64,000 nucleotides of DNA from an uncultured Gemmatimonadales bacterium (GCA_963825815.1 CAWGVB010000025.1:52419-116418); one strand, 5' to 3'; numbered from the stretch's first letter, positions 3,762-63,618 are shown. Numbers and translations are program-made. The notes: a model not told the origin generated them from the letters alone.

Positions 3762-5080
3762 TCCTGGTCCTGGCCCTGCTCGCGACGCTGGCCGGCACGG
3801 ATACGGTGCCCGGTGTCGTGGTCGTTGCCGGAAGCAAAGGGGAGGCGCGGATTCCGGTGCGGGCCGACGAGAACGGCGGTCCGGTCTTGCCGGCGGCGGC
3901 TCTCATGTCGGCCCTGGATGGCTCGGCCAAGGTCGTCGAGGGTTGGGCCGAGGTTGCTGTGGGCTCCCAGAACTTTCGTTTCCTGGTAGGGACGCCGCTC
4001 TGCTTCTGCGGCAACCGTCTGCGGCCGCTTGCGGGTGGGGCGTCGGTCACGCGGGATACGCTGTATCTACCCTTGCAGTTCATTGCGGAGATCCTGCCGG
4101 CATCGCAGGGAAGCCGCTTTCGGTACGACGGTGCCCGCGCCCGCCTCAGCGTGGCGGGCGCAGCGGACCGGCCGCCGGTGGCGCGGGGAACGCCCCCCGC
4201 GGAGTCCAGACTTCCCAACGGACTCCGCCCCGGGCATTTGGTCACCCTCGACCCCGGCCATGGAGGAGTGGACCCAGGGAACCCTGGGGTCTTCTTTCCC
4301 CGCGGGACCAAGGAGAAGGACGTCACCCTCCAGGTTGGACTGCTCCTGCGCAACGAGCTGAAACGTCGGGGCGTGGGCGTGAACATGACCCGCACGGCTG
4401 ATACCCTGATCGCTCTGGGAGACCGGGGCAGCTACTGCACCGAGTCGTGCGATCTCTTCGTCAGCCTCCACGTGAATTCGCTGGCCCGGCGCCACGGCTA
4501 CACCGACATTCGCGGCTTCGAGACGTACTTCCTGGCCGAGGCGAGGACGGAAGACGCGGCTCGGGTGGCGCAGATGGAAAACGAAGCTGTACGCTTCGAG
4601 ACCAATGCCCCGTCGGGTGAAGCCGGAATGGGCCTGGATTTCATATTGAAAGATCTCCAGCTGAACGAGCATCTTCGCGAATCGGCGCGTGCTGCCGAAC
4701 TGGTCCAGCGCCAGCTGAAGACGGTGCATACGGGGGACAGCCGCGGGGTCAAGCAGGCGGGATTCATGGTTCTGACCACCGCCCGCCGGCCGGCCATTCT
4801 GGTGGAACTAGGCTACAGCACGAACCCCGAAGACGGCCGGTTTCTCACCAGCTACGCCGGCCAGAAGGCCATGGCCGCGGCACTGGCCGACGCCATCGTC
4901 GAGTATCTGCTCGAATATCAGCGTAAGACCGAGCCCGTGGTCGAGCGCAGGAGGGCTGAAGTGAGCGCGGGTAACCGTCTCCGCCGATGTCATCCTCGCG
5001 GTGAGCCTGACTGCGACGGCCGGATGCGTCTATTACAACGGCATGTACAACGCCAATCGGCTGGCCAACTCAGCCCGTAA
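3758..5080 (+). CDS. N-acetylmuramoyl-L-alanine amidase (Amidase_3, AmiC-like); 3' end uncertain
   Basis: [59 protein letters not shown] 3758 forms a GTGA overlap with the smpB stop. The last ~40 codons look non-homologous and overlap the next gene's signal peptide. Confidence 0.75.
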
Positions 5081-6409
5081 GGCGGAGCACGACGGCCGAA
5101 CCTTCGAGGCCAACAATCTTTGGGGTCAGGTAGCCACCAAGGCCGAGTCGGTCGTAGTACGTCACCCCAAGAGCAAGTACGCGGAACAGGCCGAGCTGCT
5201 TCGGGGTGTGGCTCTGGCTCGACTGGGTCAGTGCGATCAGGCACTGGGTCCCCTCGGCCGATTGACAACCACGACTCGCTCTTCGCCGGAACTGGTCGAG
5301 GATGCCCTGCTGTCCACCGGGCGCTGTCAGATGGCTTCAGGCAATCTCGCCGCTGGCGATGCAGCGTTCATTCAGTTGCTGCAGAGCAGTAACCCGGACC
5401 GCCGCCGGGAAGCTCGCTTCCAGCACGCGCAGGGTCCTACGGGCGGCCGGCCAGTACGAGGAGGCCTTACGCGTTCTCGAAGGAGTGTACGAGCCTCGGG
5501 CCCAGACCGAGCGGATGTTGGCGCTGGCTGGCGCTGGTCGGGTGGCCTGAGGCGCTGGCGCTGAGCGACTCGCTGATTTTCCATGGCGATTCCACCAAGC
5601 GTTGGGACTCGGTTCTGGTGATCATGGCACAAGAGAATCCGGTCGCGGCTTCGGGCTTGGTGGACCGGGTGCAGCGTCTTCCCAAACGCACCCCCGAGTT
5701 ACAGGCGCGTACCTTCCTGGATGACGGGCTTCGGCTCAGCTCCATCGATACCGCTCGCGCCGCACGCCGCTTCCGGGAAGCGCTGACGGTTGGAGGGAAA
5801 GGTGAGTCGGCAGGTCGGGCGGGTCTGGCCCTGATCAAGCTGCGCCTGGCCTCACTGAACAATCCAGCTGATCTGCCCTCGATCATAGATAGCTTGAAGC
5901 AGCTCGCCCTGCGGTTCGAAGGCAGGGCTGACGAAGTCGATCGATTTGCCGCCAGCGTCTCCGAAGTCGATTCCGCGGCCAGAACGGCGACACCCACGAC
6001 GCCACAGGGAGATCTCCGGCTATTTCTGGCTGCGGAGTCCGCCCGGGAAATCCTCAAGGCACCCAGGATAGCAGAGTCCCTCTTCCGCCGAATTCCGGAG
6101 CAATGGCCATTTTCGGCTTATGCTCCCAAAGCCATCCTGGCCGCCCAACAGTTGAATCCGGAATGGGTCGATAGCGCCCGCACCATCCTCGACCAGCAGT
6201 ACTATGACAGCCCGTACGTGGTCGCCATTCAGGGCGAGGCCACGTCCGAGTACCGTCAGCTGGAGGATTCACTAGGGGCGTTTGCCGCCTCGTTGGCGGT
6301 CCGCCGGGCACCGACGCCAGGCGCTCGGCGGAAATTCGTTCCACCCCTCCAGCCGGGTCGTCGCCGCCAGCCTGCCGCAGGAGGGTCCAAGGTTCCCGAG
6401 CCCCAGTGA
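4961..6409 (+). CDS. Hypothetical TPR-like lipoprotein, reconstructed across several frame changes
   Basis: Pieces are 5001-5564, 5302-5550 and 5618-6409. The lipobox-like LTATAGC is preceded by a basic stretch in the amidase frame. The pieces join sensibly (..NPDRRREARFQHAQ / ..LRAAGQYEEALRVLEG / ..LIFHGDSTKRWDSVLVIMAQ). I recognise no family. Confidence 0.35.
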
Positions 6410-7282
6410 ACTCTCTCTCCCTCGAGCGAGAGCTGTTCGGCCAACGGTTCCAGAATCCGCTTCTTCTCGCCGCGGGGACCGCCGGCTTCGGCCGCGAGCT
6501 CGACGGAGTGCTCAGGCTCGATCGACTCGGCGGTATCATCACCAAGGCAGTCTCTTTGCAGCCGCGACACGGAAACGCCCCACCGCGGGTGGCGGAGTTC
6601 ACCGGGGGCATGCTGAATTCGATCGGCTTGGCCAATCCGGGGGTGGAGTCGGTTCGGCGGGAGGCGCTTCCCTGGCTCTCCAGGCATTTGACCCGGGCGC
6701 AAGTCCTGGTCAACGTCGTCGGGTTCACGGTGGATGAATACGCTGAGGTGGTGCGGCGGTTGGACGGATCGTCCCCGATCGCCGCCTTCGAGTTGAATCT
6801 TTCCTGCCCCAATACCTCGGCCGGTGGGATTGAGTTCGGCGCCGATTCCGGTTGCGTTCAGCGGATCGTGGCTGCCTGCCGGGCGACGCACCAAGCTTCC
6901 ACTCGTGGCCAAGCTGTCGCCCCTGCTTCCCGATATCGGAGGGATGGCCGTCGTGGCAAGGGATGCGGGCGCCGATGCGGTCAGTGCGGTGAACACCATA
7001 CCCGGAATACTCTACGGCAATGCCGGTGAAGCCCGACTGGGCCACGGCAGCGGTGGCGTGAGCGGACCGCCGCTGCTGCCGGTTGGAGTGCTGGCAGTTT
7101 CGCGCATCCTCGATCGCACCGGTGGAATTCCAGTGATCGGTGTCGGTGGAGTGCGATCAGCCGACGATGTGCGGCAGTACTTACGGGCCGGCGCATCGCT
7201 GGTGGCCATGGGTACCGGCGCGCTGGCCGATCCACGACTACCTGAGAGGATCGTGCGAGACCTGGAGGGTGGGGGTGGCTGA
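6406..7282 (+). CDS. pyrD: Dihydroorotate dehydrogenase (class 1, PyrD), one frame change near 6890
   Basis: FQNPLLLAAGTAGFG..GGIITKAVS..NSIGLANPG..ELNLSCPN in ORF 6406-7029 continues as KLPLVAKLSP..SAVNT..GGVSGP..PVIGVGG in ORF 6824-7282. Confidence 0.85.
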
Positions 7283-7967
7283 GTTAATTCTGGCTTTGGA
7301 CACTCCGCGCGGCGACGATGCCCTTGCGCTGCTGGATCGGCTTCCGCCACTTCGATGGGTCAAGGTCGGCTCCATAATCATGACTCGGGAAGGGCCCGAG
7401 TTCGTCCGCCGGCTGATCGAGCGTGGCCTCGATGTTTTTCTCGATCTCAAGTGGCACGACATTCCGAACACCGTTGCTGGTGCAGTGAGCTCGGCCCGGG
7501 ACCTGGGCGTGAGTATGGCCACCGTCCACGTACTTGGAGGCAAGGCGATGCTCGAGGCGGCGGTCACGGCTTCAGCAGGTGAGCTCGCCCTGGTCGGGGT
7601 CACCGTGCTTACCTCCCATGACGCGGCTTCCTACGAGCACGCGCTGGGCAGAGCATCGGTGAATCTGGCAGCCGAAGTCGAGCGGCTGGGTCAAGTGGCG
7701 ATCGCCGCCGGGTTGCAGGGACTGGTATGCTCGCCCAGCGAGGTATCGGTCTTGCGTGAGCGGCTAGGGCCGAAGCCCTTTCTGGTGGTTCCGGGGATCA
7801 GAAGGGGCTCAGATGCCAGGGGAGACCAGGTTCGGGTGTCCTCCCCGGAGGACGCCATCAGGCATGGAGCTACGCACCTGGTAGTCGGCCGACCGGTGCT
7901 TCAGGCCGCGAATCCACGCGCAGTTTTGGAAGAGCTCATGAAGGAGGCGGGGTGCGTCATATCGTAA
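7275..7967 (+). CDS. pyrF: Orotidine-5'-phosphate decarboxylase
   Basis: LILALDTP..VKVG..FLDLKWHDIPNTV..TVHVLGG..LVVPGIR..VVGRPV. GTG 7275 overlaps the pyrD stop by 8 nt. Confidence 0.85.
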   Translation: MAELILALDTPRGDDALALLDRLPPLRWVKVGSIIMTREGPEFVRRLIERGLDVFLDLKWHDIPNTVAGAVSSARDLGVSMATVHVLGGKAMLEAAVTASAGELALVGVTVLTSHDAASYEHALGRASVNLAAEVERLGQVAIAAGLQGLVCSPSEVSVLRERLGPKPFLVVPGIRRGSDARGDQVRVSSPEDAIRHGATHLVVGRPVLQAANPRAVLEELMKEAGCVIS

Positions 7968-8368
7968 TGGCCATGGTACTGGCCGCGGCCCCTGCGCTCG
8001 GAAACGCTCAGGGCAACGACCTGGATCAGGCTGCCGAGAAGGCCCGGCAGGCGTGGTTTGCTCACAATACGGCCGCCCTCGTTGCCGAGAGCCCCCGTCT
8101 CTTGATCCAGCTGCCGGGCGCCGAACCGTCGGTGGCGCTGGGGCCGGACCAGGCTGCAGCCCTCCTCTCGAACTTTCTATCCAACGGCCAGGAGGTGGAG
8201 ACGGTGGTCCGGGCAGCGCGTGAGGTGGCACCCAGCCAAGGGTATGTCGAGCTCCAGAGGAAATACCGCGTTGTCGGAACCCAGAACGTGCGGACCCAGG
8301 TTCTCCTGTTGGGGTACCGCCGAAGTCCGGGAGGGTGGACGCTGGTCGAGTTCCGGGCGGTGGGCTGA
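7952..8368 (+). CDS. Hypothetical secreted protein (possibly an NTF2-like/DUF4783-like fold)
   Basis: 138-aa ORF with the signal peptide MRHIVMAMVLAAAPALGNAQG. The family assignment is from memory only. Confidence 0.45.
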   Translation: MRHIVMAMVLAAAPALGNAQGNDLDQAAEKARQAWFAHNTAALVAESPRLLIQLPGAEPSVALGPDQAAALLSNFLSNGQEVETVVRAAREVAPSQGYVELQRKYRVVGTQNVRTQVLLLGYRRSPGGWTLVEFRAVG

Positions 8369-8397
8369 GGGCGGCTTTCTCGATGCACAGTCTCGAC

Positions 8398-8426
8398 TTG
8401 CCTCACAGGGAGGTCACTTCTATATT
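8398..8426 (+). promoter_or_regulatory. Candidate sigma70-type promoter for the rpmJ-rpsM-rpsK-rpoA-rplQ operon
   Basis: TTGCCT (8398-8403), a 17-nt spacer, then TATATT (8421-8426), about 36 nt upstream of the rpmJ GTG. It is an AT-rich hexamer in a GC-rich background. Confidence 0.35.
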
Positions 8427-8461
8427 GCCCTGCTAGCCCTAAACCTGGCCCGGAGAGAAGC

Positions 8462-8578
8462 GTGAAGGTTCGTTCCAGCGTCAAGCCGATTTGCGAGCAC
8501 TGCAAGGTCATCAAGCGACAAGGCGTGGTCCGCATCATCTGCAAGCGCAATCCCAAGCACAAACAGCGGCAAGGCTGA
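8462..8578 (+). CDS. rpmJ: 50S ribosomal protein L36
   Basis: [38 protein letters not shown]. It is not in the ORF track (38 aa), and GAGAGAAG lies upstream. Confidence 0.9.
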
Positions 8579-8580
8579 TC

Positions 8581-8961
8581 ATGGCACGTATTGCTGGCGT
8601 GGATCTCCCGCGCGAGAAGCGGGTCGAGATCGCGCTCACCTACATCTTCGGAATTGGCCGGCCCACCAGCAGCCGCATTCTGGGGGAGACGGGCGTCAAT
8701 CCGGACACCCGCGTGCGCGATCTTTCGGACGCGGAAGTGGCGCGCCTTCGCCAAATGATCGAGCGGTCGGTCAAGGTGGAAGGAGCGCTCCGCACCGAAG
8801 TCGCCATGAACATCAAGCGGCTGATGGACATCGGGAGCTATCGGGGCATTCGGCATCGCCGCGGTCTTCCGGTCCGGGGCCAGCGGACTCACACCAACGC
8901 AAGGACCAAGAAGGGTCCCCGGCGCGCTATTGCCGGCAAGAAGAAAGTGACGAAGAAGTAA
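8581..8961 (+). CDS. rpsM: 30S ribosomal protein S13
   Basis: [52 protein letters not shown] 8581 is used; the track ORF is extended at the N-terminus. Confidence 0.95.
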
Positions 8962-8962
8962 G

Positions 8963-9364
8963 ATGACCGCGCCAACACCGGCCAAGGCCCCCAGTCCCAA
9001 GCGCTCGAAGAAGGTGGTCGACTCCGAGGGGATCGCGCACATCTCGGCCACATTCAACAACCTGCTCATCACCATCACCGACATGCGGGGCAATACCCTC
9101 GCCTGGGGTTCGGCGGGGAAGGCCGGGTTCAAGGGCTCCAAGAAGTCCACACCATTCGCGGCCACCGTGGCGGCGGAAAACTGTGGACGCGAAGCCATGA
9201 ACCTCGGGCTTCGGCGGGTGCACGTTCGGGTTCAGGGACCGGGCAGCGGACGCGAGTCGGCCATTCAGGCCCTCGCCTCGGTGGGACTTCGGGTGGTTTC
9301 CATCCGCGATGTCACCCCTATTCCGCATAACGGCTGCCGTCCGCCCAAGAAGCGGCGGGTGTAG
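8963..9364 (+). CDS. rpsK: 30S ribosomal protein S11
   Basis: [61 protein letters not shown]. Confidence 0.95.
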
Positions 9365-9391
9365 TAACTCTAGACTGGAGCATCACACGAA

Positions 9392-10525
9392 GTGACCATG
9401 ACCATTGATCTGACCGGATTGGTTCGCCCGCATCTCGTCGAGATGACCAAGCGGGACGACAATCCCAATGCCGCCGAATTCCGTCTCCAGCCGCTCGAGC
9501 GTGGCTTCGGTTACACCCTGGGCAACTCGCTCCGCCGGCTGTTGCTCTCCTCGCTGCGCGGAAGCGCGGTGTGGGGCTTCCGGCTCGATGGCGTCGTCCA
9601 TGAGCATCAGACGGTGCAGGGCGTCCTCGAAGACGTGCACCAGATCGTGCAACGGCTGAAGGCGCTCACCCTGGTACTGGCCGACAACGTCGACGATGCG
9701 GTGCTCCACATCCGTCGCGAGGGCGCCGGGCCGGTATACGCTCGCGATATTCAGGAGCACGGGTCCGTTGTCATCAAGAACCCCGAACACCTGCTGTTCA
9801 CCCTGCAGGACGATCGGGACGTGAGCATGGAGCTCTACGTCAACAAGGGTCGGGGTTACGTCGAGGCCGAAATGCACCCGGCCGACCGGTCGCTTCCCAT
9901 CGATCTGGTCCGGGTGGATGCCATCTACAATCCGGTGCGCCGGGCAAACTTCACGGTGGCGGAAACCCGTGTCGGTCAGCGCACCGACTATGACCGTCTG
10001 ACCGTGTCGGTCGAGACTAACGGCACCATCACTCCGGAAGATGCTATCGCCTACGCCGCGGCCTTGGCGCAGGTCCACTTTCAGTATTTCGTGGACTTCG
10101 GCAAGGTGCCGACCATGCGTGACGCCGGCGCAGCCACCGGCGGAGCGGCCGGCAGCAATCTGCGTCAGCGGCTGAGCCGTCCGATCGACGACTTCGGCCT
10201 TTCCGTGCGGTCGCTCAATTCCCTGAAGAACTCCAACATCCGCACCCTGCGGGACCTGGTCGAGTTCTCAGAGGACGATCTTCTCAAGGTCAAGAACGTC
10301 GGCGAAAAGGCGCTCAGCGAAATTGCCGAGCTGCTTCAGCGCGAGGGGCTCAACTTCGGAATGGGCTTTGAAGAGACCGACGGCGAGCTGCAGGATCGTT
10401 ACGGCCCGGAGTTGCTCCGGTGGTGCAGCCGTCAACGACCATCATTGGAGACGGCACCTGATGCGGCATCGCGCCAAAGGCAGGCAGCTTTCCCGCACTT
10501 CAACGTCACAAGCGCGCCATGTTGA
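9392..10525 (+). CDS. rpoA: DNA-directed RNA polymerase alpha subunit; C-terminal ~30 codons doubtful
   Basis: FRLQPLERGFGYTLGNSLRRLLLSSL..IYNPVRRANFTVAETRVGQRTDYDRL..LSVRSLNSLKNSNIRTLRDLV. The ORF runs 64 nt past the rplQ start, so a late frame error is likely. Confidence 0.9.
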   Translation: MTMTIDLTGLVRPHLVEMTKRDDNPNAAEFRLQPLERGFGYTLGNSLRRLLLSSLRGSAVWGFRLDGVVHEHQTVQGVLEDVHQIVQRLKALTLVLADNVDDAVLHIRREGAGPVYARDIQEHGSVVIKNPEHLLFTLQDDRDVSMELYVNKGRGYVEAEMHPADRSLPIDLVRVDAIYNPVRRANFTVAETRVGQRTDYDRLTVSVETNGTITPEDAIAYAAALAQVHFQYFVDFGKVPTMRDAGAATGGAAGSNLRQRLSRPIDDFGLSVRSLNSLKNSNIRTLRDLVEFSEDDLLKVKNVGEKALSEIAELLQREGLNFGMGFEETDGELQDRYGPELLRWCSRQRPSLETAPDAASRQRQAAFPHFNVTSAPC

Positions 10526-10818
10526 ACAACATGGCCACCAGCCTCTTCGTGCACGGCCGGGTCATCACCACCGAGGCCAAGGCCAAGGAGCTGCGGCCTT
10601 TTGCCGAGAAGCTCATCACCCTGGCGCGGCGGGGCGACCTCCATGCGAGGCGATTGGTGGAGCGCCGGATCAAGGATCGGGAAACCCTCACTCGGCTGTT
10701 CGGCGAGATCGGGCCCCGGTTCGCGGCCCGTCCGGGGGGATACACCCGGATTCTGAAGCTGGGCCACCGCGAGGGAGACGGTGCCGATGTGGCGAGGATC
10801 GAGCTGCTTGCGGAGTGA
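10461..10818 (+). CDS. rplQ: 50S ribosomal protein L17, one frame change near 10500
   Basis: MRHRAKGRQLSRTS (frame of ATG 10461) continues as RHKRAMLNNMATSLFVHGRVITTEAKAKELRPFAEKLITLA..GGYTRILKLGHREGDGA in ORF 10519-10818. Confidence 0.85.
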
Positions 10819-10828
10819 GCGGCTGCCG

Positions 10829-10872
10829 GCCAGAAACAAACAAGGGGACCTTCGGGTCCCCTTTTTTCTGGC
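10829..10872. terminator. Bidirectional intrinsic terminator between convergent rplQ and rpmB
   Basis: AAGGGGACC-TTCG-GGTCCCCTT (10842-10863) is nested in GCCAGAAA...TTTCTGGC. It has a T-run on the + strand and an A-run on the - strand. Confidence 0.75.
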
Positions 10873-10874
10873 AG

Positions 10875-11066
10875 TCAGCTCGCCTTCTTGATCCGATTAC
10901 TCTTGAGGCACTGGGTGCAGACCCTGATCCGCTTGGGCGCGCCATCGACCAGAACGCGCACGGTCTGCAGATTGGGGTACCAGCGCCGCTTGGTGCGATT
11001 GTTGGCGTGGCTGACGTTGTTGCCGGTAACCGGCCCTTTAGCGCACACGGCGCAAACCCGTGCCAT
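10875..11066 (-). CDS. rpmB: 50S ribosomal protein L28
   Basis: [41 protein letters not shown]. Confidence 0.9.
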
Positions 11067-11155
11067 AAGCTCCACCTTGGTATCTTGTCGAACGCGAGAA
11101 AGCCTCCAAACCTAACGAGGCGGGCTGATGAGACAACCATGCCGGGAGCCAGCTT

Positions 11156-12119
<964 letters not shown>

Positions 12120-12132
12120 GGGCTTCTCGAGG

Positions 12133-13088
12133 ATGAGGGTGCTGGTGACCGGCGGCGGACGGCTTTGTCGGACGGCGTTTGGTGGGACGGCTGGTGGAGA
12201 CCGGCCACGAGGTGACCGCCGCCTGCCGGCCAGTGCAAGGGCAGCCGAACTCAGGCGGCGAGCCCTGGAGTGATCGGGTGCGCACGGTACCGTTGGAGCT
12301 CGAGGACGAGCGCGCTGTCCGCCAGGCGCTGAGCGCTCCTCAGGATGCCGTCGTTCACCTGGCCGCCATGGCATCGGTACGGGAAGCTCGAGAGGATCCC
12401 GGGCGGGCCTGGGTGATCAACGCCGCGGGCACCGCGCGGGTCATGGATGCCCTGATCTCCGTCGCGTGAGCGCGGGCAGTCGGATCCGATTGTGCTGCAG
12501 TGTGTCCAGCTCCGAGGTCTACGGTGCAGGGCCGGCATCGCCGCGAGGCGAGAGTCGACCCGGTGCGGCCGCAGTCGCCCTACGCAGCCAGCAAGGCCGG
12601 CGTCCGAGATCGCCGCGCTGGAGGCCTGGCGCCGGACCGCGGCTTCGGGTGATCATCGCCCGCCCATTTACTCATACGGGGCCGGGCCAACGCCCTCCGT
12701 ATGTGGTGCCGGCATTCATCGAGCGGTTGCTGGCGGCCAAGGCCGGGGCGACCGCCGAGTGCCTACCGGCAATCTGAAGCCGGTGCGCGACCTGCTCGAC
12801 GTTCGCGATGTGGTGGAAGCCTATCTGGCGCTGCTGAGCAGCGGGGTTCCCGGTGAGACCTATAACATCGCGCGGGGCGAGGGGATTACGCTGGAGCAGT
12901 TCTTCCGGCGCGTCGCGGACATCATCGGGGTAGAGGCCGAGCCGTCTCCCGACCCGACCCTGGTTCGGAGCGGCGATATCCCTCATCTCGTGGGTGACGC
13001 AACCAAGCTACGGAAAGCCACCGGCTGGTCGCCGGCCATCACGTTGGATCAGACTCTGCGGGAAATGGTGGATGCCCAAACGCACTGA
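12133..13088 (+). CDS. rmd: GDP-6-deoxy-D-lyxo-4-hexulose reductase-like SDR (Rmd type), at least four frame changes
   Basis: MRVLVTGG.. / [21 protein letters not shown].. / SSSEVYG.. / [15 protein letters not shown].. / [44 protein letters not shown] are spread over ORFs 12179, 12466 and 12492. The pattern matches P. aeruginosa Rmd as I recall it. Confidence 0.65.
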
Positions 13089-16000: not shown

Positions 16001-16375
16001 ATTGCCCGCCGGTTTCATGCGCTGGGGTTCCGGGTGCTGGGGACCGAGGGAACGGCGCGCTATCTTCGGGCCCGCGGCATTCCCACCGAGCGGGTTCTCA
16101 AGGTGTACGAGGGCCGTCCCAACGCCATCGACTTGCTGGTTTCGGGCCAGATTCAGCTGCTCATCAACACTCCCCTGGGAAAGCTCACCCAGCAGGACGA
16201 CTACGCCATCCGCCGTGCGGCTCTCCAACACCGGGTGCCGTACACCACGACGCTATCCGCGGCTTCAGCCGCCTGTGACGCAATCATCGCGCTGAGGAGC
16301 CGTGCCGGTGAGGTGCGGCCGCTTCAGGAGTGGCATGCGCTCGCGCGGGAGATGTCTCCGGAGTGGACCGGGTGA
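13072..16375 (+). CDS. carB: Carbamoyl-phosphate synthase large subunit, one frame change near 13385
   Basis: [33 protein letters not shown] in ORF 12994 continues in the 988-aa ORF 13409-16375. Both ATP-grasp halves and the MGS-like tail are present. Confidence 0.9.
14491..14577 (+). repeat. Purine-rich G-tract insertion inside carB (half-copy of the GGGGAAG element; canonical G4 motif on the coding strand)
   Basis: The tract is 87 nt with 10 pyrimidines. It has eight G3-4 tracts separated by 4-7 nt: GGG-aatggca-GGG-aggtc-GGG-aagga-GGG-aagc-GGGG-aagt-GGGG-atgc-GGG-taagaa-GGG. The 12-mer GGGAAGTGGGGA (14536-14547) recurs as a reverse complement at 36459-36470. Confidence 0.55.
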
Positions 16376-17334
16376 GCGCACGCAGCGCGAACTTCGTCAC
16401 TGCGCTGCGGGATCGGGTTGCCGGGACGGTGCGGGAGGGGGAGTCGGTCGCCCGCTACTCCACCTATCGCATCGGTGGGCCGGCGACGGTGCTGCTGCCT
16501 AAGACCGCGGCGGACGTGGCGGCCGCCCTCCGTCTGGCAGGCGAGACCGGTACTCCCTGGTTCGCGCTGGGTCTCGGCTCAAATATCCTGCTGCCGGACG
16601 AAGGACTAGACGCTCTGGTTATCCGAATGGGAAAGGGCCTCGACCGGCTAGAGCAGGATCAGGATCGCTGGACCATTGGGGCGGGTCTCCCCGCCCCTCT
16701 TGCCGCGCGACGGACGGCCGAGGCCGGCTTTGCCGGGTTGCATATCTTCGTTGGCGTGCCCGGCACCGTCGGTGGGGGCGTGTACATGAACGCCGGCTGT
16801 CACGGCGGCGATTGGGCCGAGGTGGTCCAGCAGGTCACGGTGGTGGACCGACACGGGAATGACAGCGTATTGACCCGCCGTGACGTCCCTTTCACCTACC
16901 GCCGGAGCGGGCTGGATGGCAGGATCGTGCTGGAGACGACCGTACAGCTGCGGCCCGAAGAGCCGGCCCACCTGGAGGCAGCGGTCGCCGAGCTCTTCGA
17001 GTGGCGGCAGAAGGGCACGCCTTTCAACCAGCCCTGTTGCGGCAGCGTCTTCAAGAACCCGTCGGGACCGAGCTGGAAGCGGGAGGGCGGGCCCCAAACG
17101 GCGGGGCAGCTGATCGAGGCAGCCGGACTCAAGGGGTTCAGCATCGGCGGAGCGCAGGTTTCACCGATGCACGCCAACTACTTCGTGAACACCGGAGGCG
17201 CTACCGCCGCCGACGTTCGCCGATTGATCGAGCATGTGCAGCGTACGGTGGAGGAGCGGTTCAGCGTGCGGCTCGACCCCGAGGTAAAGCTCATCGGTGC
17301 CAGGGGCGAATACCTGAACGAGAGTGAGAGGTAA
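16372..17334 (+). CDS. murB: UDP-N-acetylenolpyruvoylglucosamine reductase
   Basis: [70 protein letters not shown] 16372 forms a GTGA overlap with the carB stop. Confidence 0.85.
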
Positions 17335-17925: not shown

Positions 17926-18049
17926 CTTCTCTAGCTGTCTATGGTTCCGCGATACTGCGCGCCCGGGCTCAGCCGGATCGGCTGGAGCATCGGGCGCTTC
18001 CACATGACCGCTCCAGCGGGGCTGGGCGGAGGAAAGGCCCAGGATTGTC

Positions 18050-19165: not shown

Positions 19166-19175
19166 GCGACAGACC

Positions 19176-20458: not shown

Positions 20459-20459
20459 C

Positions 20460-49836: not shown

Positions 49837-50025
49837 TGGAGGGCGAGCTTCGACCCCAGGCCCGGGACATAGGCCGGCTCCTCGCTCCTCCCAGTCGTTC
49901 GTTGACACTGGCGCTGGTGCATGCAAATCGTTGCACCATCGTGCGCTTGCCCGGGTTTTGGCCGCCCGGTATCTTTCGCGCACTCCAAATCTTATCCCTG
50001 TTCCTCCTCCTCAGCCCCGAGCCGC

Positions 50026-54146: not shown

Positions 54147-55980
54147 TCACACCCCCGCCTGCTGTGCCTGCGGCGATCCCGATTGCTGCAGGACCTTGGC
54201 CCGGTTATCCACGATCTTGGCCGACTTGCGGAGCGCCGTGAGATAGTTTCTCACCCGCTCCTGCTTTGCCACGTTGATCAGCCGGGCCCGGTACTGCTCC
54301 AGGTCTTTGGCGAATTTGGCTGAATCGGCTTTGACGTGCTGCAGCGTCTCGATCACGTAAATCCCGTCTTTGGTATCGAGAACACCGCTCCGCTCTCCCT
54401 CCTTCAGTCCAAACGCGGTGCCGACCACAACCGGATTGGTGAGGGGAGGATTGATTCGGCTAAAGGGGCCGAACTCGCGATGGGGCAGCTTCATGGCCGC
54501 TGCCGCCTCGGCCAGGGAACTCCCTCCCTCGACTCGCTTCAAGTAGTCCTTTGCCAGCTGACGGGCCGCGGCCCACTTTTTCTGATCGCGGGTGGCGGAC
54601 ATTACCGCGGGGCGGACCTCCGCCAGCGCGGGCACCCCGGCATCGTGAAGGCTATCCAGCCGGAAGATGTAATACGCGAACGACGTTTCAATCACCGGGC
54701 TGGTTGCGCCAGGCTTGGCCTGAAAGGCCCAGACCCCGGCATCGGGCACTACCAGCTGGCCGAGTTGGACCTTGGTGCCTTGCTGAACGGGGGCGGTGTG
54801 CCCGATCCTCAGCTTCAGGGCGCGGGCCACGGTATCGAGCGCTGCAGGATCGCTTCGCTCGGCGCCGAGATGCTCCAGGCTATCGGCTTGAGCGTCCAGC
54901 TGATCGCGGTGCGCGCCGGTGACTTCGATGGGAAACAGGATGTGACGACCTTTGGCCTTGTTTCCCTTGCGGCTGGTAACCTCGATGATATGGAAGCCGA
55001 ACTGCGAGAGCACCGGGGCTGAAACCGTGTGCAAGGGCAGCGCAAACGCCGCGGAGTCGAAGGCAGGATCCATCGCACCCTTGGTCCACTCACCCAGATC
55101 GCCACCCTTGGCGGCAGTGGCGCTGTCGGCCGACTCACGGCCGGCTACCTCAGCGAACGGGGCGCCGTGCAGGATCTCCTGGCGGGCGGAATCAGCCCGC
55201 GCACGTACGGCCGCCGTGTCCGTCGGAGGTAGCCATGCGCGGCAACGCCACATAGCTCAGGTATGCCGTCTTGGGACGCTGAAACTCGTCCCGGTGGGCC
55301 TTGTAGTAGGAGGCCAGTTCGGCATCGCTTACCTGGATAGAGGAATCGGGCACAGCATTGCGGGGGACGATGGCGGTGAGACCAATCTTCACCATTTCAT
55401 GCTCGTCCCGGTACCGCTCCCAGAGCGCAGCATCAGACAGGTAGATGTCCGAGGTCACCAGCCGGAGAAGCTTGGCCCGTTGGAGCTCATCCCGATACTG
55501 GGCCTCGAGGCTGGGGAGATACTGTTGGGCGACACTGGACGTGAGCCAGCGCTGGTACTTGGCCAGATCAAACTGGCTATCGGTCTGGAATTCGGGGACC
55601 TTTTGAAACTCGGGCAGGGGAGATGTCCGGATGGCCTGCACCACTTCATCTTCGCTGACACTAATGCCCCGACGGCGATACTCGGCGTCGAGCACGCTGT
55701 TTTGAACAATTTGGTCCCAGACCTCGTCGCGGACCTGCTGATAATCATCCAGCCCCATGGCTCCGGGGCTCTGCCGCTGGCGGGCATCTATCGATTGCTG
55801 GACGATATTCTGATAGGTCCGGGCATCGATACTCCGCCCGTTGATCTTGCCGACGGAGGTCTGGGTCAAGAGGCCGGTGCCGCCGGTAATTCCGCTCAGG
55901 TCCAGCACCAACCAGGCAAAGAAGGTTATGGCCACCACGACCATGAGGGGCTTGGCCGCGTTCCGAAAGGCTTGCATCAT
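54147..55980 (-). CDS. ppiD: Periplasmic chaperone / peptidyl-prolyl isomerase PpiD-like (N-terminal TM, SurA_N-like, parvulin), one frame change near 55225
   Basis: MMQAFRNAAKPLMVVVAITFFAWLVL..INGRSI in ORF 55192-56094(-) continues as ..GGDLGEWTKGAMDPAFDSAAF..GFHIIEV (parvulin) in ORF 54147-55253(-). Confidence 0.7.
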
Positions 55981-56169: not shown

Positions 56170-57688
56170 ATGGCCACGACAGAAATTGAAAAGCTGGAGC
56201 GTCGGTACGCCGAGAACCCTCAAGGGCTGACCTTTGCTCCCTTGGCCGAAGTCCATCGCAAAAACGGAGAAGTCGCCCGAGCCCTGGAACTGTTGAAGGC
56301 AGGGCTCGAGCTTCATCCGAACTACATACCGGCCAGCATCGTGCTCGGCCGTTGCCACTGGGACCTGGGAGACTTACCGGCGGCCGAGGCCGCATTCTCC
56401 CATGTTCTTCGGCTGGACGATGAAAACGTCATCGCCCTCAAGTCTCTGGCCGACATCAATGAGCGGTTGGGTCGCTTCAGCGATGCCCAGCGGTGGCTGA
56501 ACCGGCTGATCGCGGTGGACCGGAGCAACGAGGAGGCCCGGCAACAGCTCGCACGGATCGAGACGGCCAAGCAGCAGCCGGTTGCCGCTGACGCCAAGGT
56601 TGCCGCCGATCCCAAGGTGCCCGCCCCGGCCGAACCGACTGCACCCGAGCCGACCGGAAAGACGCCGGAACCGGTGATAGCCGAGACCGAACGGAAGCCT
56701 TCTCCTGCGACGGCATCTGGCGCAAAGTCTCCTGAAGCAAAACGACCGGAGTTAAAACCTCCTGAAGAGAGACCTCCCGAACCAACGCCGACCGAAACAA
56801 AGTCAGCTCAGGACGGCCCGGTAGATTTGACGGCTGCTATCGCTGAGCCCAAGTCCTCGTCCGAGCTCCAGTTTCTCGATATTGCGGAACCTCCGCAGAA
56901 CGCTGAACTCCCTCAGGCTTCTACTCCTCCCGAGCCGGCTGATTTGCCTGAGGAGCCGCCCGCTCTTCCCGGCCTCATCAGCCAGGAGTTCGTCCCTCCC
57001 AAGGAGGGCTCGTACCACCTGCATCCCGAGCTGGCTCACGATTACGGCTCGGCTGAATCTCCGGAGTCGGCTAAAGGTCCAGAAGTGGAGGATCTCGGGG
57101 TCGAAACCGCCGAGGAGGTGGAACTGCAGAGCTCGGGGGCCTCTGAATTTCGAGTGCCCAATGCCGCCGAGGATTTCATGGACGCAGGGGCGAGTACTTC
57201 GGCTGCTCCGGCCTGGCCCGAGATCGAATTGGCGTCACCGCCGGCATTTGAAGCCCCTCCGGCAGTAGAGGAGTCTGCGGAATCGCAGAAGTCTGCCCCT
57301 GCATCTGAGTCTCCCCCGGTCCAGCCCCCTATAGCCGTACCGGAGTCCGCCGCGGCGCAGGAACCCACAAGGCGGTCGTATTCGGTGCGAGAGACAAAGG
57401 GGCAGTCGGTCGTCGCGTTTTTTCAGAGCCTGCTTTCTGCCCGACCCAGCGGGAAGTCCAGCGTCCGCCAGAGGCTCGGCGGGTGCAGCCCAGGATGGAG
57501 CACCGGCAAACGCAGGAGCGTCCGCGGTCGGTTCGGCTCCCTCTTCCGCAGGCTCGCCGGACACCGTCTCCTTTGACGACTTCTTCAACGCGGCAACCTC
57601 GGGCTCCTCTCCGGGGAACAAGGAAGGCGACCCAAGCAAGGACGATCTGGATCAGTTCCAGACCTGGTTGCAAAACCTCAAGCGCTGA
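56170..57688 (+). CDS. TPR protein with a long Pro/Glu/Ala-rich low-complexity region, frame change(s) near the 3' end
   Basis: N-terminal TPRs (LELLKAGLELHPNY.., FSHVLRLDDENV.., LNRLIAVDRSNEEA). A ~300-aa PEPT-rich spacer follows. The conserved-looking tail VSFDDFF..KDDLDQFQTWLQNLKR* is in a third frame ending just before aroQ. Confidence 0.5.
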
Positions 57689-58126
57689 ATGCGCGTCGCC
57701 GTGCTCAACGGCCCCAACCTCAATCTGTTGGGGCAGAGGGAACCGGAACTGTATGGCCGCACCAGTCTGGCGGATATCGAAGCCATGGTCCGGGAAGCGG
57801 CCAAGCCCCTCGATGTCGAGATCGATTGGTTCCAGACCAATCACGAAGGTGAAATGGTCGAGGCGGTCCAGCGGTTACGAGGTCGAGCCGACGGGGCGCT
57901 GATCAATGCAGCGGCCCTGACGCATTCAAGCCTGGCGCTCCGTGACGCGCTGCTGGCGGTGCGGGTACCCTTCGTCGAGCTTCACCTGTCCAACATTTTC
58001 GCTCGGGAGCCCGAGCGCAGGCACTCCGTCATAGCGGACCTTGCCCTCGGCATGGTGACCGGGTTCGGCGCACAAAGCTATCTGCTGGCCTTGCAGGCGC
58101 TGGTGGGTCGGCTCCGTGCCGGCTGA
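57689..58126 (+). CDS. aroQ: 3-dehydroquinate dehydratase, type II
   Basis: MRVAVLNGPNLNLLGQREPELYG..FQTNHEGEMV..INAAALTHSSLALRDAL..VELHLSNIFAREPERRHS. Confidence 0.9.
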   Translation: MRVAVLNGPNLNLLGQREPELYGRTSLADIEAMVREAAKPLDVEIDWFQTNHEGEMVEAVQRLRGRADGALINAAALTHSSLALRDALLAVRVPFVELHLSNIFAREPERRHSVIADLALGMVTGFGAQSYLLALQALVGRLRAG

Positions 58127-59205
58127 CCGCCGGATCGAGCGGCAAACCGGGCTCAGGCTCGGCGTTGGAGGCGGAGGGGCTGGATGGGCTGGTCATCACT
58201 CACCTGCCCAATATTCGTTACCTCACCGGCTTCACCGGCTCCGCGGCGGTGTTGCTGGTCCGGAACGATGCTACAGTCCTGGTCTCGGATTTCAGGTATG
58301 CGGCACAGGCCCCGGCCGAGGTCGGCGGATCGGCAGTGGTCGAGATCGATCAACGCAGCGTATGGGACCGTCTAGGCAGGGTGCTAAACGACGGCCGGAT
58401 CGAGCGGCTCGGGATCGAGGCCCACATCATAAGCGTCAAGGATGCCGATCGGCTCAGCGGGTTGACCCCGGCCCGGCTGGTGCCAGCCAGTGAACTGGTT
58501 GAGCGTCAGCGGGAAGTCAAATCGCCGGAAGAAATCGCGGCAATCAGGGCAGCGGCCGAGCTGGCCCAAGAGGCTTTAGCTGAAGTGCTGCCTCGCATTC
58601 GGGTGGACCAAACCGAACTGGAGATTGGGGCAGACCTAGAGCGCGCCCTGCGCCGGCGAGGGAGCCAGTGGCACCCGTTCCCGACCATTGTCGCGTCGGG
58701 TGAGCGTTCTGCCTTGCCGCATGCTCGCACCAGCCAGCGGCCGGTCGAAGCCGGAGACCTTCTCCTGGTGGACTTCGGTGCCCAGGTGGATGGGTACTGC
58801 GCCGATCTGACCCGGACCATGGTGGTGGGGGCCAGGGCCGACGAGCGGCAACGGTTGATTCACGGGGTGGTGCAGTCGGCGCAGCGAAGGGCAATCGAGC
58901 ACTTGAGACCCGGGATGACGGGCCGTGAAGGCGACGCCCTGGCCCGCGAGGTGATCACCACCCGGGGATTCGGCGATGCTTTCGGGCATTCTCTGGGGCA
59001 TGGACTGGGGCTCGAAGTGCATGAGGCTCCTCGGCTTTCGCCGAGCTCCGAGGCGGCGTTGCCGCTCTATGCCGTGGTCACCGTAGAGCCGGGTATCTAT
59101 TTTCCGGGGTGGGGTGGGATACGCCTGGAAGACGATGTGTATCTGGGTCCCGCGGGCGCCGAGTGCCTGTCGGACGGCAGGACCGATCTGCTTGAACTGG
59201 TCTAG
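58116..59205 (+). CDS. pepP: Xaa-Pro aminopeptidase (M24B), one frame change near 58155
   Basis: GTG 58116 opens VPADRRIERQTGLR. After a shift it continues as EAEGLDGLVITHLPNIRYLTGF..FPTIVASGERSALPH..DFGAQVDGYCADLTRT..GHSLGHGLGLEVHE..EPGIY. Confidence 0.8.
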
Positions 59206-59223: not shown

Positions 59224-59784
59224 ATGGCATCTACCGCCGACTTCAGAAACGGGCTCGTTCTCGACATCGACGGCCAGCTGTTTCAGCTGGTCTATTTCCA
59301 GCACGTCAAGCCCGGCAAAGGCGGCGCCTTCGTCCGAACCAAGCTCAAGAACATCCGAACCGGCGCGGTCATCGACCGGACCTACAACGCTGGAGAGCGG
59401 GTCAACGACGTTCGGCTGGAGCGCCGGGCGCTGCAGTTCTCGTATGCCGATGGGCACTTCTATCACTTCATGGATCAGCAAACGTTCGACGACATCATGC
59501 TGACGGACGAGTTGATCGGGCAGGATCAACTGAAGTACCTGAAGGAAGGGATGGAATGTGAAGGTCTGGTCCACAACGATCGGGTGATCACCGTGGAGCT
59601 CCCCTCTTTCGTGGAGCTGACCGTCACCCGAACCGCCCCGGGCATCCGGGGTGATACCGCTACCGGCGGAACCAAACCGGCCACCCTGGAGACGGGTGCC
59701 ACCGTGCAGGTGCCGCTTTTCATCGAGGAGGGCCAGGTGATCCGGGTCGACCGCCGCGAAGACAAGTACTTGACCCGCGTATGA
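59224..59784 (+). CDS. efp: Translation elongation factor P
   Basis: STADFRNGLVLDIDGQLFQLVYFQHVKPGKGGAFVRTKLKNIRTG..TGGTKPATLETGA. Confidence 0.95.
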   Translation: MASTADFRNGLVLDIDGQLFQLVYFQHVKPGKGGAFVRTKLKNIRTGAVIDRTYNAGERVNDVRLERRALQFSYADGHFYHFMDQQTFDDIMLTDELIGQDQLKYLKEGMECEGLVHNDRVITVELPSFVELTVTRTAPGIRGDTATGGTKPATLETGATVQVPLFIEEGQVIRVDRREDKYLTRV

Positions 59785-60318
59785 GCCCACAAGAGATGCA
59801 GGAGCTCGCCGAGCTCCTGCAAAACGTGCCGGGCATTCACTCCATCGATCTCAAGGATGTAAAGCGCCTGGCCCAGCTGCTGCGGGAAACGCCCGAGATC
59901 GGCTCGATCGAGGTGAAGGGGTGGTTCGGCACCGGCGTGGTGATCACCCGGACGACCGCTGCCCCGGTTGCCGCCGCGGCACCGGCGATGGTGGCGGCCG
60001 CTCCGGCCGCCACGTCGGCCGCGGATCAGGAGCATCGAGAAGCCGCCGCCGCGCCCAGCGACTACTGCGCCCCAGCTCAAGGAGATCCGCTCGCCCATGG
60101 TGGGCACGTTTTACAAGGCGCCGGAGCCCGGCGCCGAGGCCTACATCAAGGTGGGCAACCGGGTCACTCCAGGCCAGACCGTGTGCATCATCGAAGCGAT
60201 GAAGATCATGAACGAGATCGAGGCGGAGATCGCCGGCACCGTTCGCGAGATCTTGGTGGAAGACAGTCAGCCGGTGGAATTCGGGCAGGTTCTCTTCCGG
60301 GTCGATCCTAATGGCTGA
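59781..60318 (+). CDS. accB: Acetyl-CoA carboxylase biotin carboxyl carrier protein, one frame change near 60050
   Basis: The N-terminal part is in ORF 59781. The biotinyl domain IRSPMVGTFY..GQTVCIIEAMKIMNEIEAE is in ORF 59968-60318. Confidence 0.85.
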
Positions 60319-61517: not shown

Positions 61518-62876
61518 ATGTTTAAGAAGGTCCTGATCGCCAACCGCGGCGAGATCGCCCTTCGGGTCATCCGCGCCTGCCGCGAGCTGGGGGTCGAGAC
61601 CGTGGCCGTCTACAGCGAGGCCGATCGCGAGTCGCTGCACGTTCGCTTTGCCGACGACGACGTGTGCATCGGTCCGCCGCCCAGTCGCAACTCCTATCTG
61701 CGCATCCCCAATCTCATAGCCGCCGCGGAGATCACCGGGGCCGACGCGATTCATCCGGGGTACGGGTTCCTGGCGGAGAACGCGGAGTTTGCCGACACCT
61801 GTCGCGCGTCCAACATCACGTTCATCGGCCCGACCGGAGATCAGATTCGTCAGATGGGGGACAAGGCCACCGCCCGGCGGCTGGCCTCCGAAGCCGGCGT
61901 TCCTACCGTGCCTGGCTCGCCCGGGACGATCGAGGAGGTGGACGACGCCCTCGCCTTTGCCAACGAGATCGGTTTTCCGGTCATCATCAAGGCCACGGCG
62001 GGCGGCGGCGGAAAAGGCATGCGGATCGCGCATGACCCCGAGCAGTTCTCGCAGCTCTTTGGTTTGGCCCAAAACGAAGCGCTGGCAGCCTTCGGCAACG
62101 GCGCGGTGTATGTCGAGAAATACCTGGAGCATCCCAGGCACGTGGAGATCCAGGTGATGGGTGACCTGCACGGCAAGGTGGTTCACATGGGCGAGCGGGA
62201 CTGCTCGGTGCAGCGCCGCCATCAGAAGCTCATCGAAGAGAGCCCGAGCCCCGCCTTGAACGACGAGCTCCGGGCCCGGATGGGACAATCCGCCGTGGCG
62301 CTGGCGTCCAACATCGGTTACGCCGGCGCGGGCACGCTCGAGTTCCTCCTGGATCCCGAGGGAAAGTTCTACTTCATGGAGATGAACACCCGGATCCAGG
62401 TGGAGCATCCGGTCACCGAGATGGTGACCAGCTTTGACATCGTCAAAGAGCAGATTCGAGTCGCGTCGGGAGAGCCGGTCAGTTTCCAGGGGGACGGCCG
62501 CCGCCTTCGCGGACACGCTATCGAGTGCCGGATCAATGCGGAAGATCCCTACCGTAACTTCCAGCCCTCGCCCGGCCTCATCACAGCTTACCATCCGCCG
62601 GGCGGCCCCGGCGTTCGCCTGGATACCCACGTCTACGCCGGCTACACGGTGCCGCCCTATTACGATTCGCTGCTGGCCAAGGTGATCGTTCACGGCAACA
62701 CCCGGGAGGAGGCGCTGAGCCGGATGGGTCAGGCGCTGGACAGCTTTATCCTGGAAGGCGTCACCACAACGATTCCATTCCTGGCCCGGGTCATCCGCCA
62801 TCCGGACTTCGTCGCAGGGAACGTCGATACCCGTTTTCTCGAGCGGGAGTCTCACCTGCTGCGGCCGGAAGCATGA
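61518..62876 (+). CDS. accC: Acetyl-CoA carboxylase biotin carboxylase subunit
   Basis: [70 protein letters not shown]. Confidence 0.95.
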
Positions 62877-63618
62877 GAATCGACGTCCTGTTTTCACCCG
62901 CCGGGCTGACTCCAGCCGAGGTGCAGGGGCGATCCGTATTCGTCATCGACATCCTGCGGGCCACCACCTCGATGTGCGCCGCCTTGAGCCGGGGCGCCAA
63001 GGCGATCATCCCGGTCGCCTCCACCGAGGAGGCCCTTCGGCTGGCCCAGACCATCGGCAGCGCGGACGTTCTCCTGGCGGGCGAGAAAGACTGCGTCCGG
63101 ATTCCGGGATTTCACCTGGGCAACAGCCCGCTGGAGATGACCGAGCGGGCGGTGCGGGGGAAGACCATCATCGTCACCACCAGCAACGGAACCAAGGCTC
63201 TGCTCGCTACCCAGGGGGCCAGCGCAGTGTATCCCACCGCTGCGGTCAACCTGTCCGCGGCGGCCGAGAAGGCGCGCGAGGTGCTGGAAAGCGACCGGCA
63301 CATCCTGATCGTGTGCGCCGGCCGGGAGGGCGCTTTTTCGCTTGACGATGCCTACTGTGCCGGCCGTCTGGCGGCGGCGGTTCTGGGGGGCACCAGGCCG
63401 CGCCGGGGCCTGAACGACGCGGCCATAGCGTCGCCTCGATCTGGTCCGACGCTACCGCGATGGATGGGAGCGTCCGCTGAGCATACAGCCGGGCCGGGCG
63501 GGAGCTGGTAAAGCTCGGGTTCCGGGACGACCTGCGCGAGGCGGCCCGGATGGATGCGTATCCGGTGCTGCCGCTCTACCACGAGCGCCGGGTCACGCTG
63601 GCGGCGGTACCGGTATGA
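62873..63618 (+). CDS. comB: 2-phosphosulfolactate phosphatase family protein (ComB-like), frame change(s) near 63440
   Basis: [48 protein letters not shown]. The tail ..[26 protein letters not shown] is in another frame and ends at TGA 63616-63618. Confidence 0.65.

Follow-up and report, generated by a model that had tools for sequence, protein, structure and literature searches.

Frame disruptions in a 64-kb stretch of a Gemmatimonadales contig are very probably consensus errors

Introduction

Why do so many conserved genes change reading frame within one stretch of DNA from an uncultured Gemmatimonadales bacterium? These 64,000 nucleotides, referred to as the window, come from a soil bacterium and belong to a larger contig of 375,886 nt, probably of metagenomic origin. 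An earlier note listed about fifty disruptions in the window and ascribed them to assembly indels rather than gene decay. Here, we compare the window with contigs of the same species and with genus-level relatives, and weigh the possible origins of the disruptions.

Results

Indels of the window

The reference set comprised up to 10 same-species contigs, with 92–98% nucleotide identity to the window, and genus-level relatives. Indels were identified by MAFFT alignment to the conspecific contigs, by MAFFT alignment to the genus-level relatives, and by tblastn with the relatives' proteins. An indel column was counted if at least 80% of the contigs compared at the site lacked it, and each column was covered by 3–10 conspecific or genus-level contigs. 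The comparison yielded 92 indel columns in the window, 86 surplus and 6 missing bases, most of which are absent from all contigs compared. The columns form about 86 separate events (1.34 per kb of the window), all of them 1–2 nt in size; about half had been missed in the earlier count. Frame changes were nevertheless present at every place named previously: each of the 35 explicit coordinates has a verified event 1–19 nt away (median 5), and the genes listed with "at least 4" or "several" changes contain 7 (rmd), 4 (tsaB), and 17 (large TPR gene) indel columns.

Strictly private 1-nt indels number 22 in the first 1–19.4 kb of the window. The segment of 19.4–23.4 kb contains 7 further insertions, none of which occurs in four genus-level relatives, and there are 37 private events in 29.1–50 kb and 33 in 43.4–64 kb. 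The affected genes and spacers are listed below with their strand; compared contigs are designated by L numbers.

3758–4964 (+), N-acetylmuramoyl-L-alanine amidase: surplus G 4945, which none of the 7 compared conspecific contigs contains; corrected protein matches L083 over residues 1–401 of 401 at 99.3%.
4961–6409 (+), TPR protein (480 aa): surplus G 4986, G 5429, T 5548; corrected, 1–481 of 481 at 98.5% to L083.
6406–7287 (+), pyrD: surplus G 6885; PyrD of relatives has 291–293 aa.
9392–10461 (+), rpoA: surplus C 10391 and 10402, absent from 10 contigs, put the C-terminal ~23 codons out of frame; corrected, 355 of 355 aa, 100% to L081.
10461–10818 (+), rplQ (L17): surplus T 10506; corrected, 118 of 118 aa at 100%.
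10819–11155, spacers on both sides of rpmB, which occupies 10875–11066 on the − strand: missing C after 11118, surplus G 10870; both may be errors or true variation of non-coding DNA.
11156–12119 (+), gmd: surplus C 11501 and A 11975, missing G after 12064.
12133–13088 (+), rmd-like NAD-dependent epimerase/reductase: surplus C 12153, G 12464, G 12497, C 12556, C 12601, A 12636; missing G after 12752.
13072–16375 (+), carB: surplus C 13383.
19176–20458 (+), wbpA-like UDP-sugar dehydrogenase: surplus T 19502 and A 20254, positioned by MAFFT alignment with L110, L111, and L115; tblastn frames 3>1>2.
20460–21771 (+), ugd: surplus G 21401.
21768–22738 (+), NAD-dependent epimerase: surplus T 22453 and 22659.
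22722–23434 (+), TPR protein (235 aa): surplus C 22932, G 23380.
29623–31785 (+), rel (RelA/SpoT): surplus A 30303, C 31081, G 31656; frames 1>2>3>1 against four relatives; intact in L001 and in conspecific contigs (719 aa); corrected, 719 of 719 aa at 99.6%.
31782–32238 (+), EVE-domain gene: surplus C 32190 abolishes the stop and joins the gene to uvrB.
34684–35410 (+), tsaB: surplus G 34764, 34837, 35174, 35299.
35370–35829 (+), rimI: surplus A 35782.
35934–36405 (+), ssb: surplus C 36309; a further surplus C 35893 lies just upstream, in intergenic DNA.
40338–41035 (+), tolA/TonB_2: surplus C 40435 and 40637.
41032–42362 (+), tolB: surplus G 41496, C 41724, T 42316; missing T after 42344.
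42376–42953 (+), pal (OmpA family): surplus C 42697 and 42881.
42950–43733 (+), cpoB/ybgF: surplus G 43430.
43752–47252 (+), TatC-LptD_2 fusion gene: surplus C 43757, G 46562, C 46716, concordant in two independent alignments.
47381–48270 (+), hypothetical gene (294 aa): surplus AC 47751–47752, A 48222, G 48250, G 48266.
48331–49873 (+), hutH: surplus T 48399, A 48410, C 48595, C 48610, C 48639, G 48845, A 49846, G 49872; missing base after 49826.
50026–52505 (+), large TPR protein (813–820 aa): 17 surplus bases at 50588, 50764–50765, 50774–50775, 50783, 50794–50795, 50805, 50815–50816, 50854, 50964, 51228, 51840–51841, and 51860; exact placement within 50764–50816 is uncertain because the stretch is hypervariable.
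54147–55980 (−), ppiD: surplus base 55224 (C on the + strand).
56170–57688 (+), TPR protein (505 aa): surplus G 57449.
58116–59205 (+), pepP: surplus G 58161.
59781–60318 (+), accB: surplus G 60042.
62873–63618 (+), comB: surplus G 63433.
19166–54053, remaining intergenic sites: surplus C 36593, C 48287, C 48307, A 54053; missing base after 19166.

Sites that were absent from the earlier list are those in the amidase, the 480-aa TPR gene, rpoA, the EVE-domain gene, and the 294-aa gene (47751–48266), the TatC site at 43757, additional hutH sites, the site in the 505-aa TPR gene, and eight intergenic sites.

Inside genes are 84 of the 92 indel bases, and 30 of the 61 genes are affected. The indels have not been shaped by selection: their share in coding DNA is 91%, and coding DNA makes up 96% of the window. 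The eight intergenic indels represent a mild excess over the 3.5 expected, and a few of them may be real polymorphisms. Essential genes are affected as often as other genes; those hit include rpoA, rplQ, ssb, rel, carB, accB, and tsaB, and indels were mapped in all five of the products singled out previously as indispensable (L17, SSB, Rel, CarB, and AccB). The genes secA (25701–28874), uvrB (32235–34277), accC, and pilT are intact, as had been noted.

Reversal of the indels

Deletion of the 86 surplus bases and restoration of the 6 missing ones converted each of the 30 affected genes into a single open reading frame of the orthologue's length, and 29 of them aligned with the orthologue end to end. 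The corrected proteins are 92–100% identical to those of conspecifics over their full length, in agreement with the previous observation that there is no decay beside the shifts, or 83–91% identical to those of genus-level relatives. The exception is comB, the corrected product of which matches L102 only in residues 1–207 of 248, and therefore its 3' end is truly different or contains a further error close to where the alignment stops. Closely spaced compensating pairs had been proposed in two genes. In gmd, the insertion at 11975 and the deletion at 12064 do compensate each other, whereas the supposed hutH pair consists of three +1 insertions at 48595, 48610, and 48639.

Fusions in the window had been said to require caution. 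The 1021-aa open reading frame at 31212–34277 falsely joins a rel fragment, the EVE-domain gene, and uvrB. The TatC-LptD_2 fusion of 1164–1165 aa is genuine and holds up against intact conspecific contigs.

The disruptions occur in a single assembly

The closest strain, represented by contig_71044 with 97.4–97.7% nucleotide identity, encodes the genes intact, as does L001, which is 77% identical to the window. Disruptions shared with relatives had been named beforehand as a sign of genuine decay or recoding, and the close relatives lack them. The indel load of the window far exceeds chance. No private 1-nt indels were found, over 8–20 kb each, in 11 contigs that have short-read-style names (L085, L087–L090, L096, L097, L100, L102, L104, and L105). 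The strict private counts of the other "contig_N" contigs from ENA are 1 (L081), 7 (L082), 8 (L083), 15 (L093), and 90 (L101). Their private indels, 1–90 per ~20 kb, are mostly insertions and are located at other sites than those of the window. The error load appears to follow assembly or technology rather than lineage, where the sequencing technology of the compared contigs is read from their names alone. Because the short-read-style contigs lack private indels and the "contig_N" contigs have their own at other sites, we consider the frame disruptions very probably to be consensus or assembly errors, and not pseudogenes or recoding.

Pseudogenes accumulate during reductive evolution, as in Mycobacterium leprae and recent host-restricted symbionts. 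Large-scale pseudogenisation of the strain, by reductive evolution or in a hypermutator lineage, would likewise disrupt the frames of many conserved genes, and the sequence as deposited does contain the disruptions. However, no event is common to the majority of conspecific contigs, including one that is 97.6% identical to the window, and the equally private indels of sister assemblies lie elsewhere. Furthermore, the events of the window are 1–2 nt long, nearly all insertions, restricted to one assembly, and found in essential genes such as rpoA, rplQ, ssb, accB, and carB, and their flanks are undecayed, apart from the comB C-terminus. With 86 insertions to 6 deletions and 92 indel bases for 248 private substitutions, the spectrum is unlike natural mutation; Mira, Ochman and Moran (2001) reportedly described a deletion bias of bacterial pseudogenes. 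Genuine pseudogenisation is highly improbable.

Nearly all shifts have the +1 direction, and the frame continues in +1 as in programmed ribosomal frameshifting, for example of prfB. Unlike sites of such recoding, those of the window show no conservation, even among conspecific contigs, no common sequence motif was found around them, and relatives lack the shifts. There are up to 17 shifts in one gene, many genes are affected, and eight events fall in non-coding DNA. Programmed frameshifting or another form of recoding deserves practically no credence, and the chance that the frameshifts are real and are either tolerated or decoded is negligible.

Sequence context of the indels

At least some of the sites had previously been assigned to short homopolymers. 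Nevertheless, insertions that extend a run are depleted: there are 20 among 79, compared with 38.6 ± 4.4 expected at random (P < 0.001). Many insertions interrupt a run (GG>GCG, CC>CGC), and there are no long homopolymers at the indel sites. The CCC near 12050 arose by loss of a G from CCGCG, and the event assigned to a TTT near 46718 is a C inserted at 46716, with A before it and G after it. The pattern in the window also differs from the classic error of nanopore sequencing, in which homopolymers lose bases, and this speaks against a noisy-long-read source. Miscalls of homopolymer length by nanopore, 454, or Ion Torrent chemistry could account for the few events that adjoin an identical base (10870 G>GG, 11975 A>AA, and CC at 51840–51841), but such miscalls are mostly contractions, in contrast to the excess of insertions observed here. 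This origin is very unlikely.

The events are clustered (dispersion index 3.6) rather than randomly scattered, as had been assumed. Their density is higher where the window diverges more from the closest strain (Spearman 0.47, p = 2e-7), which is the sole, indirect evidence for two strains in the source sample. The rmd cluster is the densest of the window's first third, where its region also diverges most from the closest strain. The window contains 248 private substitutions compared with 92 indel bases, and private substitutions are 4.7 times more frequent within 25 nt of indels.

In 37 of the 79 insertions (47%; 8% expected), other contigs have the surplus base as their allele at the adjacent column, where the window has the alternative one. 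The number of such allele-doubling cases expected from a global null is 6.3 ± 2.4. A local null, in which each insertion was kept within 60 nt of its true site, gave 8.1 ± 2.7 cases, and at most 17 in any of 1000 trials. Strain SNPs lie at synonymous third-codon positions, and insertions linked to them would concentrate there; the insertions at the boundary of codon positions 1 and 2 show a weak trend (21 of 80 compared with 26.7 expected, p = 0.11). There is no allele doubling in L101, the most error-laden sister contig (15 of 122 compared with 10.6 expected), and therefore the signature is not general to the assembly family.

Discussion

The errors, nearly all of them single surplus bases, would have arisen during the computation of the consensus, which would hold about 86 of them in the window, and not by mutation in the organism. 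The surplus bases that correspond to SNP alleles suggest a consensus built from mixed strains. We slightly favour a combined explanation, in which the contig comes from a noisy-long-read assembly of modest coverage, about half of the insertions are due to allele doubling, and the rest are residual noise. Where two co-occurring strains differ by a SNP, the consensus would retain both alleles side by side; the other half of the insertions would be ordinary consensus noise, found mainly in the same stretches, which are divergent between strains and poorly resolved. The chances are about even that allele doubling is a reproducible failure of long-read consensus on mixed strains, responsible for about half of the frameshifts and recognizable by its non-homopolymer, insertion-only signature.

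It is possible, with a lower probability, that all events are plain residual consensus noise at low read depth, without a strain mixture, and that the adjacency to SNPs is a by-product of errors in variable, hard-to-align stretches. The excess of private substitutions beside indels is explained by a low-quality consensus as well as by strain mixing. Plain noise also agrees with the non-significant codon-phase test, with the lack of allele doubling in the far more error-laden L101, and with the ~half of insertions that have no link to a SNP. In contrast, the local null falls far short of the 37 cases observed, and insertions that repeat a neighbouring base are halved, which the insertion of an alternative allele would cause and random noise would not.

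The IDEEL test of Watson and Warr (2019) was reportedly designed to detect protein-truncating indel errors. It is discussed in PMC9262707 and PMC13087279, which document frameshift errors in nanopore soil-metagenome assemblies. Danish soil assemblies deposited in ENA were made by Flye plus one round of Medaka (PMC12313526), and the Flye-style "contig_N" names of the ENA sister contigs, taken on their own, suggest a pipeline of this type. Like errors of noisy-long-read assemblies (nanopore or PacBio CLR), those of the window are private single-base indels that split or falsely fuse genes, vary in density among contigs of one project, and are missing from contigs with short-read-style names. They differ in that they are not tied to homopolymers, are biased 86:6 towards insertions, are clustered, and in about half of the cases adjoin a SNP of the population, both alleles of which are kept. 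Haplotype-aware polishers such as Hapo-G address the collapsed-haplotype consensus (10.1101/2020.12.14.422624). Artefacts of unphased polishing of heterozygous or mixed samples likewise occur where co-assembled haplotypes or strains differ, and mix alleles. Whereas those artefacts are allele switches, the window would contain both alleles in tandem, resulting in a frameshift, with the mixture read from consensus contigs only.

The damage to annotation that had been foreseen is already present in public data. The public protein collection contains, from the 375,886-nt NCBI/ENA contig, CarB of 988 aa (1100 in relatives), HutH of 292 (511), Ugd of 327 (436), WbpA of 254 (426), and TatC-LptD of 934 (1164), as well as the 1021-aa chimera of the Rel fragment, EVE protein, and UvrB. 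Claims of gene loss, fusion, or pseudogenisation based on this contig should be verified with the conspecific contigs, in which the genes are intact. Homopolymer-aware correction would not fix the contig, since its errors lie outside homopolymers, and its repair needs protein-guided or strain-aware polishing. If true, the allele-doubling signature could serve to detect and mend such errors in public long-read metagenome-assembled genomes without reads. For the organism, the broken frames of the window represent an ordinary data-quality artefact and no new biology, through which 30 of the 61 genes of the 64-kb stretch are mis-translated.

Comparison of the window with related contigs

The window has a G+C content of 64%, and only two of its genes are on the - strand; the others are on the + strand. 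Exact look-ups trace the proteins of the window to one contig of 375,886 nt, present in NCBI and ENA. One window ORF, searched against species-representative genomes, places the window in the Gemmatimonadota, and the best locus in that search, L001, is collinear with window positions 21177-41930 at 77% nucleotide identity. Searching for exact matches to ribosomal protein S11 (8963-9364) retrieved ten contigs with the same gene order and nucleotide identities of 92.3-97.7%, and nineteen further loci, which cover 29.2-63.8 kb of the window, were found via TolQ and the DUF4321 protein. The closest strain is represented by ENA ERZ25039567 contig_71044, with an identity of 97.4-97.7%. The SecA homologues fetched were only about 78% identical in nucleotide sequence, and the comparison of 19.4-29.1 kb therefore rests on genus-level relatives at about 78% identity. 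Loci L108 and L109 were left out of the third alignment, in which MAFFT scattered their ends. An indel column was called when it was without a counterpart in 80% or more of the contigs that span the position, and is referred to as strictly private when absent from every other contig. Contigs are compared with each other by strict counts only, since the relaxed 80% rule picks up real, lineage-shared multi-base indels in other contigs.

Frame changes are caused by one- and two-base indels

The proteins of relatives, aligned to the window using tblastn, show that a single orthologue is spread over two to four reading frames of the window, with changes at the sites named in the earlier note. A GC3 frame plot was too noisy for locating the shifts.

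Genes read through several frames of the window (tblastn)
rel: frames 1>2>3>1, with changes near 30300, 31080, and 31655
epimerase gene: frames 3>1>2
pal: frames 1>2>3
tolB: frames 1>2>3
wbpA, ugd, and the gene for a 235-aa TPR protein: the same frame-hopping behaviour

The frame-changed genes are single ORFs of normal length in L001 and the conspecific contigs. Multiple alignments placed each event to the base, and most of the columns are strictly private. Positions 1-19400 contain 22 private 1-nt indels (18 insertions and 4 deletions), 19400-23400 seven 1-nt insertions, and 29100-43700 together with 43700-64000 a further 63 columns, the two independent alignments being concordant where they overlap. 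In total, the window has 86 surplus and 6 missing bases in about 86 events, or 1.34 per kb; 84 are in genes, of which 30 out of 61 are affected, and 8 are intergenic. Each of the 35 explicit coordinates at which the earlier note had reported a frame change is 1-19 nt (median 5) away from a verified event, and secA, uvrB, accC, and pilT are intact, as it claimed. About half of the events, including two in rpoA, had been overlooked.

Several small length differences are in-frame or intergenic and look genuine. They comprise TTC at 36443-36445, which was dropped as an error event because it is common to the closest strain, a 3-nt ACA insertion at 23036-23038, and a 6-nt deletion at about 24428, the latter two relative to the genus-level relatives. 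In two of these relatives, rel and the EVE gene are separated by an additional gene of 161-163 aa (L110 16104-16589 and L111 16118-16609, corresponding to window position ~31785), which is absent from the species of the window.

The disruptions are not a biological feature

The majority of the other conspecific contigs share none of the indels. No private 1-nt indel is present in any of eleven contigs with short-read-style names, whereas other ENA contigs with Flye-style names ("contig_N") have private indels of their own, mostly insertions, at other positions (1, 7, 8, 15, and 90 per locus). The number of such indels thus depends on the assembly and not on the lineage. The highest count belongs to L101 (ERZ25039575 contig_21626), which is much worse than the window: its 20 kb contain 90 strictly private indels, and a called product of 827 aa joins PilT, AccC, and ComB domains. 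In locus L093 of contig_21626, the segment 1-7546, upstream of the match to window position 36731, contains unrelated DNA polymerase III alpha fragments, TfoX, and a Lon-like gene where the rel-uvrB-tsaB block would be expected; the difference reflects either rearrangement or misassembly of that contig.

Deletion of the 86 surplus bases and restoration of the 6 missing ones turns all 30 affected genes into single ORFs of orthologue length. After correction, 29 of them align end to end with a relative, with identities of 92-100% to conspecifics. The exception is comB (62873-63618), which matches L102 over residues 1-207 of 248 only; its C-terminus is either a genuine difference or conceals a further error close to where the alignable sequence ends. 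The coding share of the indels (91%) is about as expected from that of the window (96%), and the genes struck include rpoA, rplQ, ssb, carB, accB, rel, and tsaB, so no selection has acted on the indels. With 86 insertions against 6 deletions, a maximum length of 2 nt, and one indel base for roughly every 2.7 private substitutions, the indels do not resemble natural mutations. Gene decay in bacteria is biased towards deletions.

Pseudogenisation and recoding, which would make the disruptions real, were both rejected because their defining features were tested for and not found. The relatives are free of the same disruptions, which upholds the preference of the earlier note for errors over gene decay. 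Sequence privacy, the assembly-linked load, the restored ORFs, the lack of selection, and the spectrum all point to error, and the disruptions are not a real biological feature. Frameshift errors are documented in nanopore soil assemblies (PMC13087279, PMC9262707).

Insertions avoid homopolymers and often double an allele

The earlier note had hinted at homopolymer slippage and regarded the events as randomly scattered; neither idea fits the placed events. The inserted base is identical to an adjacent one in only 20 of 79 cases, whereas 38.6 +/- 4.4 would be expected at random sites; many insertions split runs (GG>GCG, CC>CGC), and the "CCC" near 12050 is the product of the loss of G from CCGCG. 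Counted in 500-nt bins, the events have a dispersion index of 3.6: the stretches 1-4944 and 13384-19165 are event-free, while 48200-48699 and 50700-51199 have 10 and 12 events, respectively. Events are denser where the window diverges more from the closest strain (Spearman 0.47, p = 2e-7). A motif search around the indel sites of the window found none.

The most specific pattern among the insertions is allele doubling, in which both alleles of a population SNP are written side by side. In 37 of the 79 insertions, the surplus base is the allele of other contigs at the adjacent column, where the window has the other allele; for example, the window reads ...CTGCAGG where strains read ...CTG-AGG or ...CTC-AGG. 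Random placement yields 6.3 +/- 2.4 such cases; if each insertion is kept to the 60 nt around its true site, the figure is 8.1 +/- 2.7, and the highest value among 1000 trials is 17. The consensus may combine reads from two or more strains that occur together, and the remaining events would be the usual residual noise, located in the same poorly resolved regions. This reading has caveats: private substitutions, too, are 4.7-fold more frequent near indels, the codon positions of the insertions show a weak trend that is not significant (p = 0.11), and the signature is absent from L101, the most error-laden sister contig. We found no direct description of such a mechanism in the literature. The sequencing platform is inferred from contig names. 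Danish soil long-read assemblies in ENA were produced using Flye and one round of Medaka (PMC12313526); the accessions used here may belong to that project.

Genuine and false gene fusions

TatC and an LptD_2-domain protein are encoded by one gene of ~1165 aa at 43752-47252, which is a single ORF once three surplus bases are removed. The same fusion is called as one gene of 1158-1165 aa in conspecific contigs, including those with short-read-style names, and is thus genuine and not a product of error. In contrast to this gene, the 1021-aa ORF at 31212-34277, in which a rel fragment in frame 3 is joined to the EVE-domain gene and uvrB, is a false fusion to which the surplus C at 32190 contributes. 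Its identification as secA was ruled out, the real secA being at 25701-28874. The exact 1021-aa product is present in a public protein collection, where it clusters with UvrB proteins of 681 aa.

The disruptions are the familiar indel-error problem of long-read metagenome assemblies with an atypical signature: unlike the usual errors, those of the window are almost all insertions (86:6), lie outside homopolymers, and are SNP-adjacent (37/79). Truncated and chimeric products of the contig are already in public protein sets, and homopolymer-based correction would leave them unrepaired.
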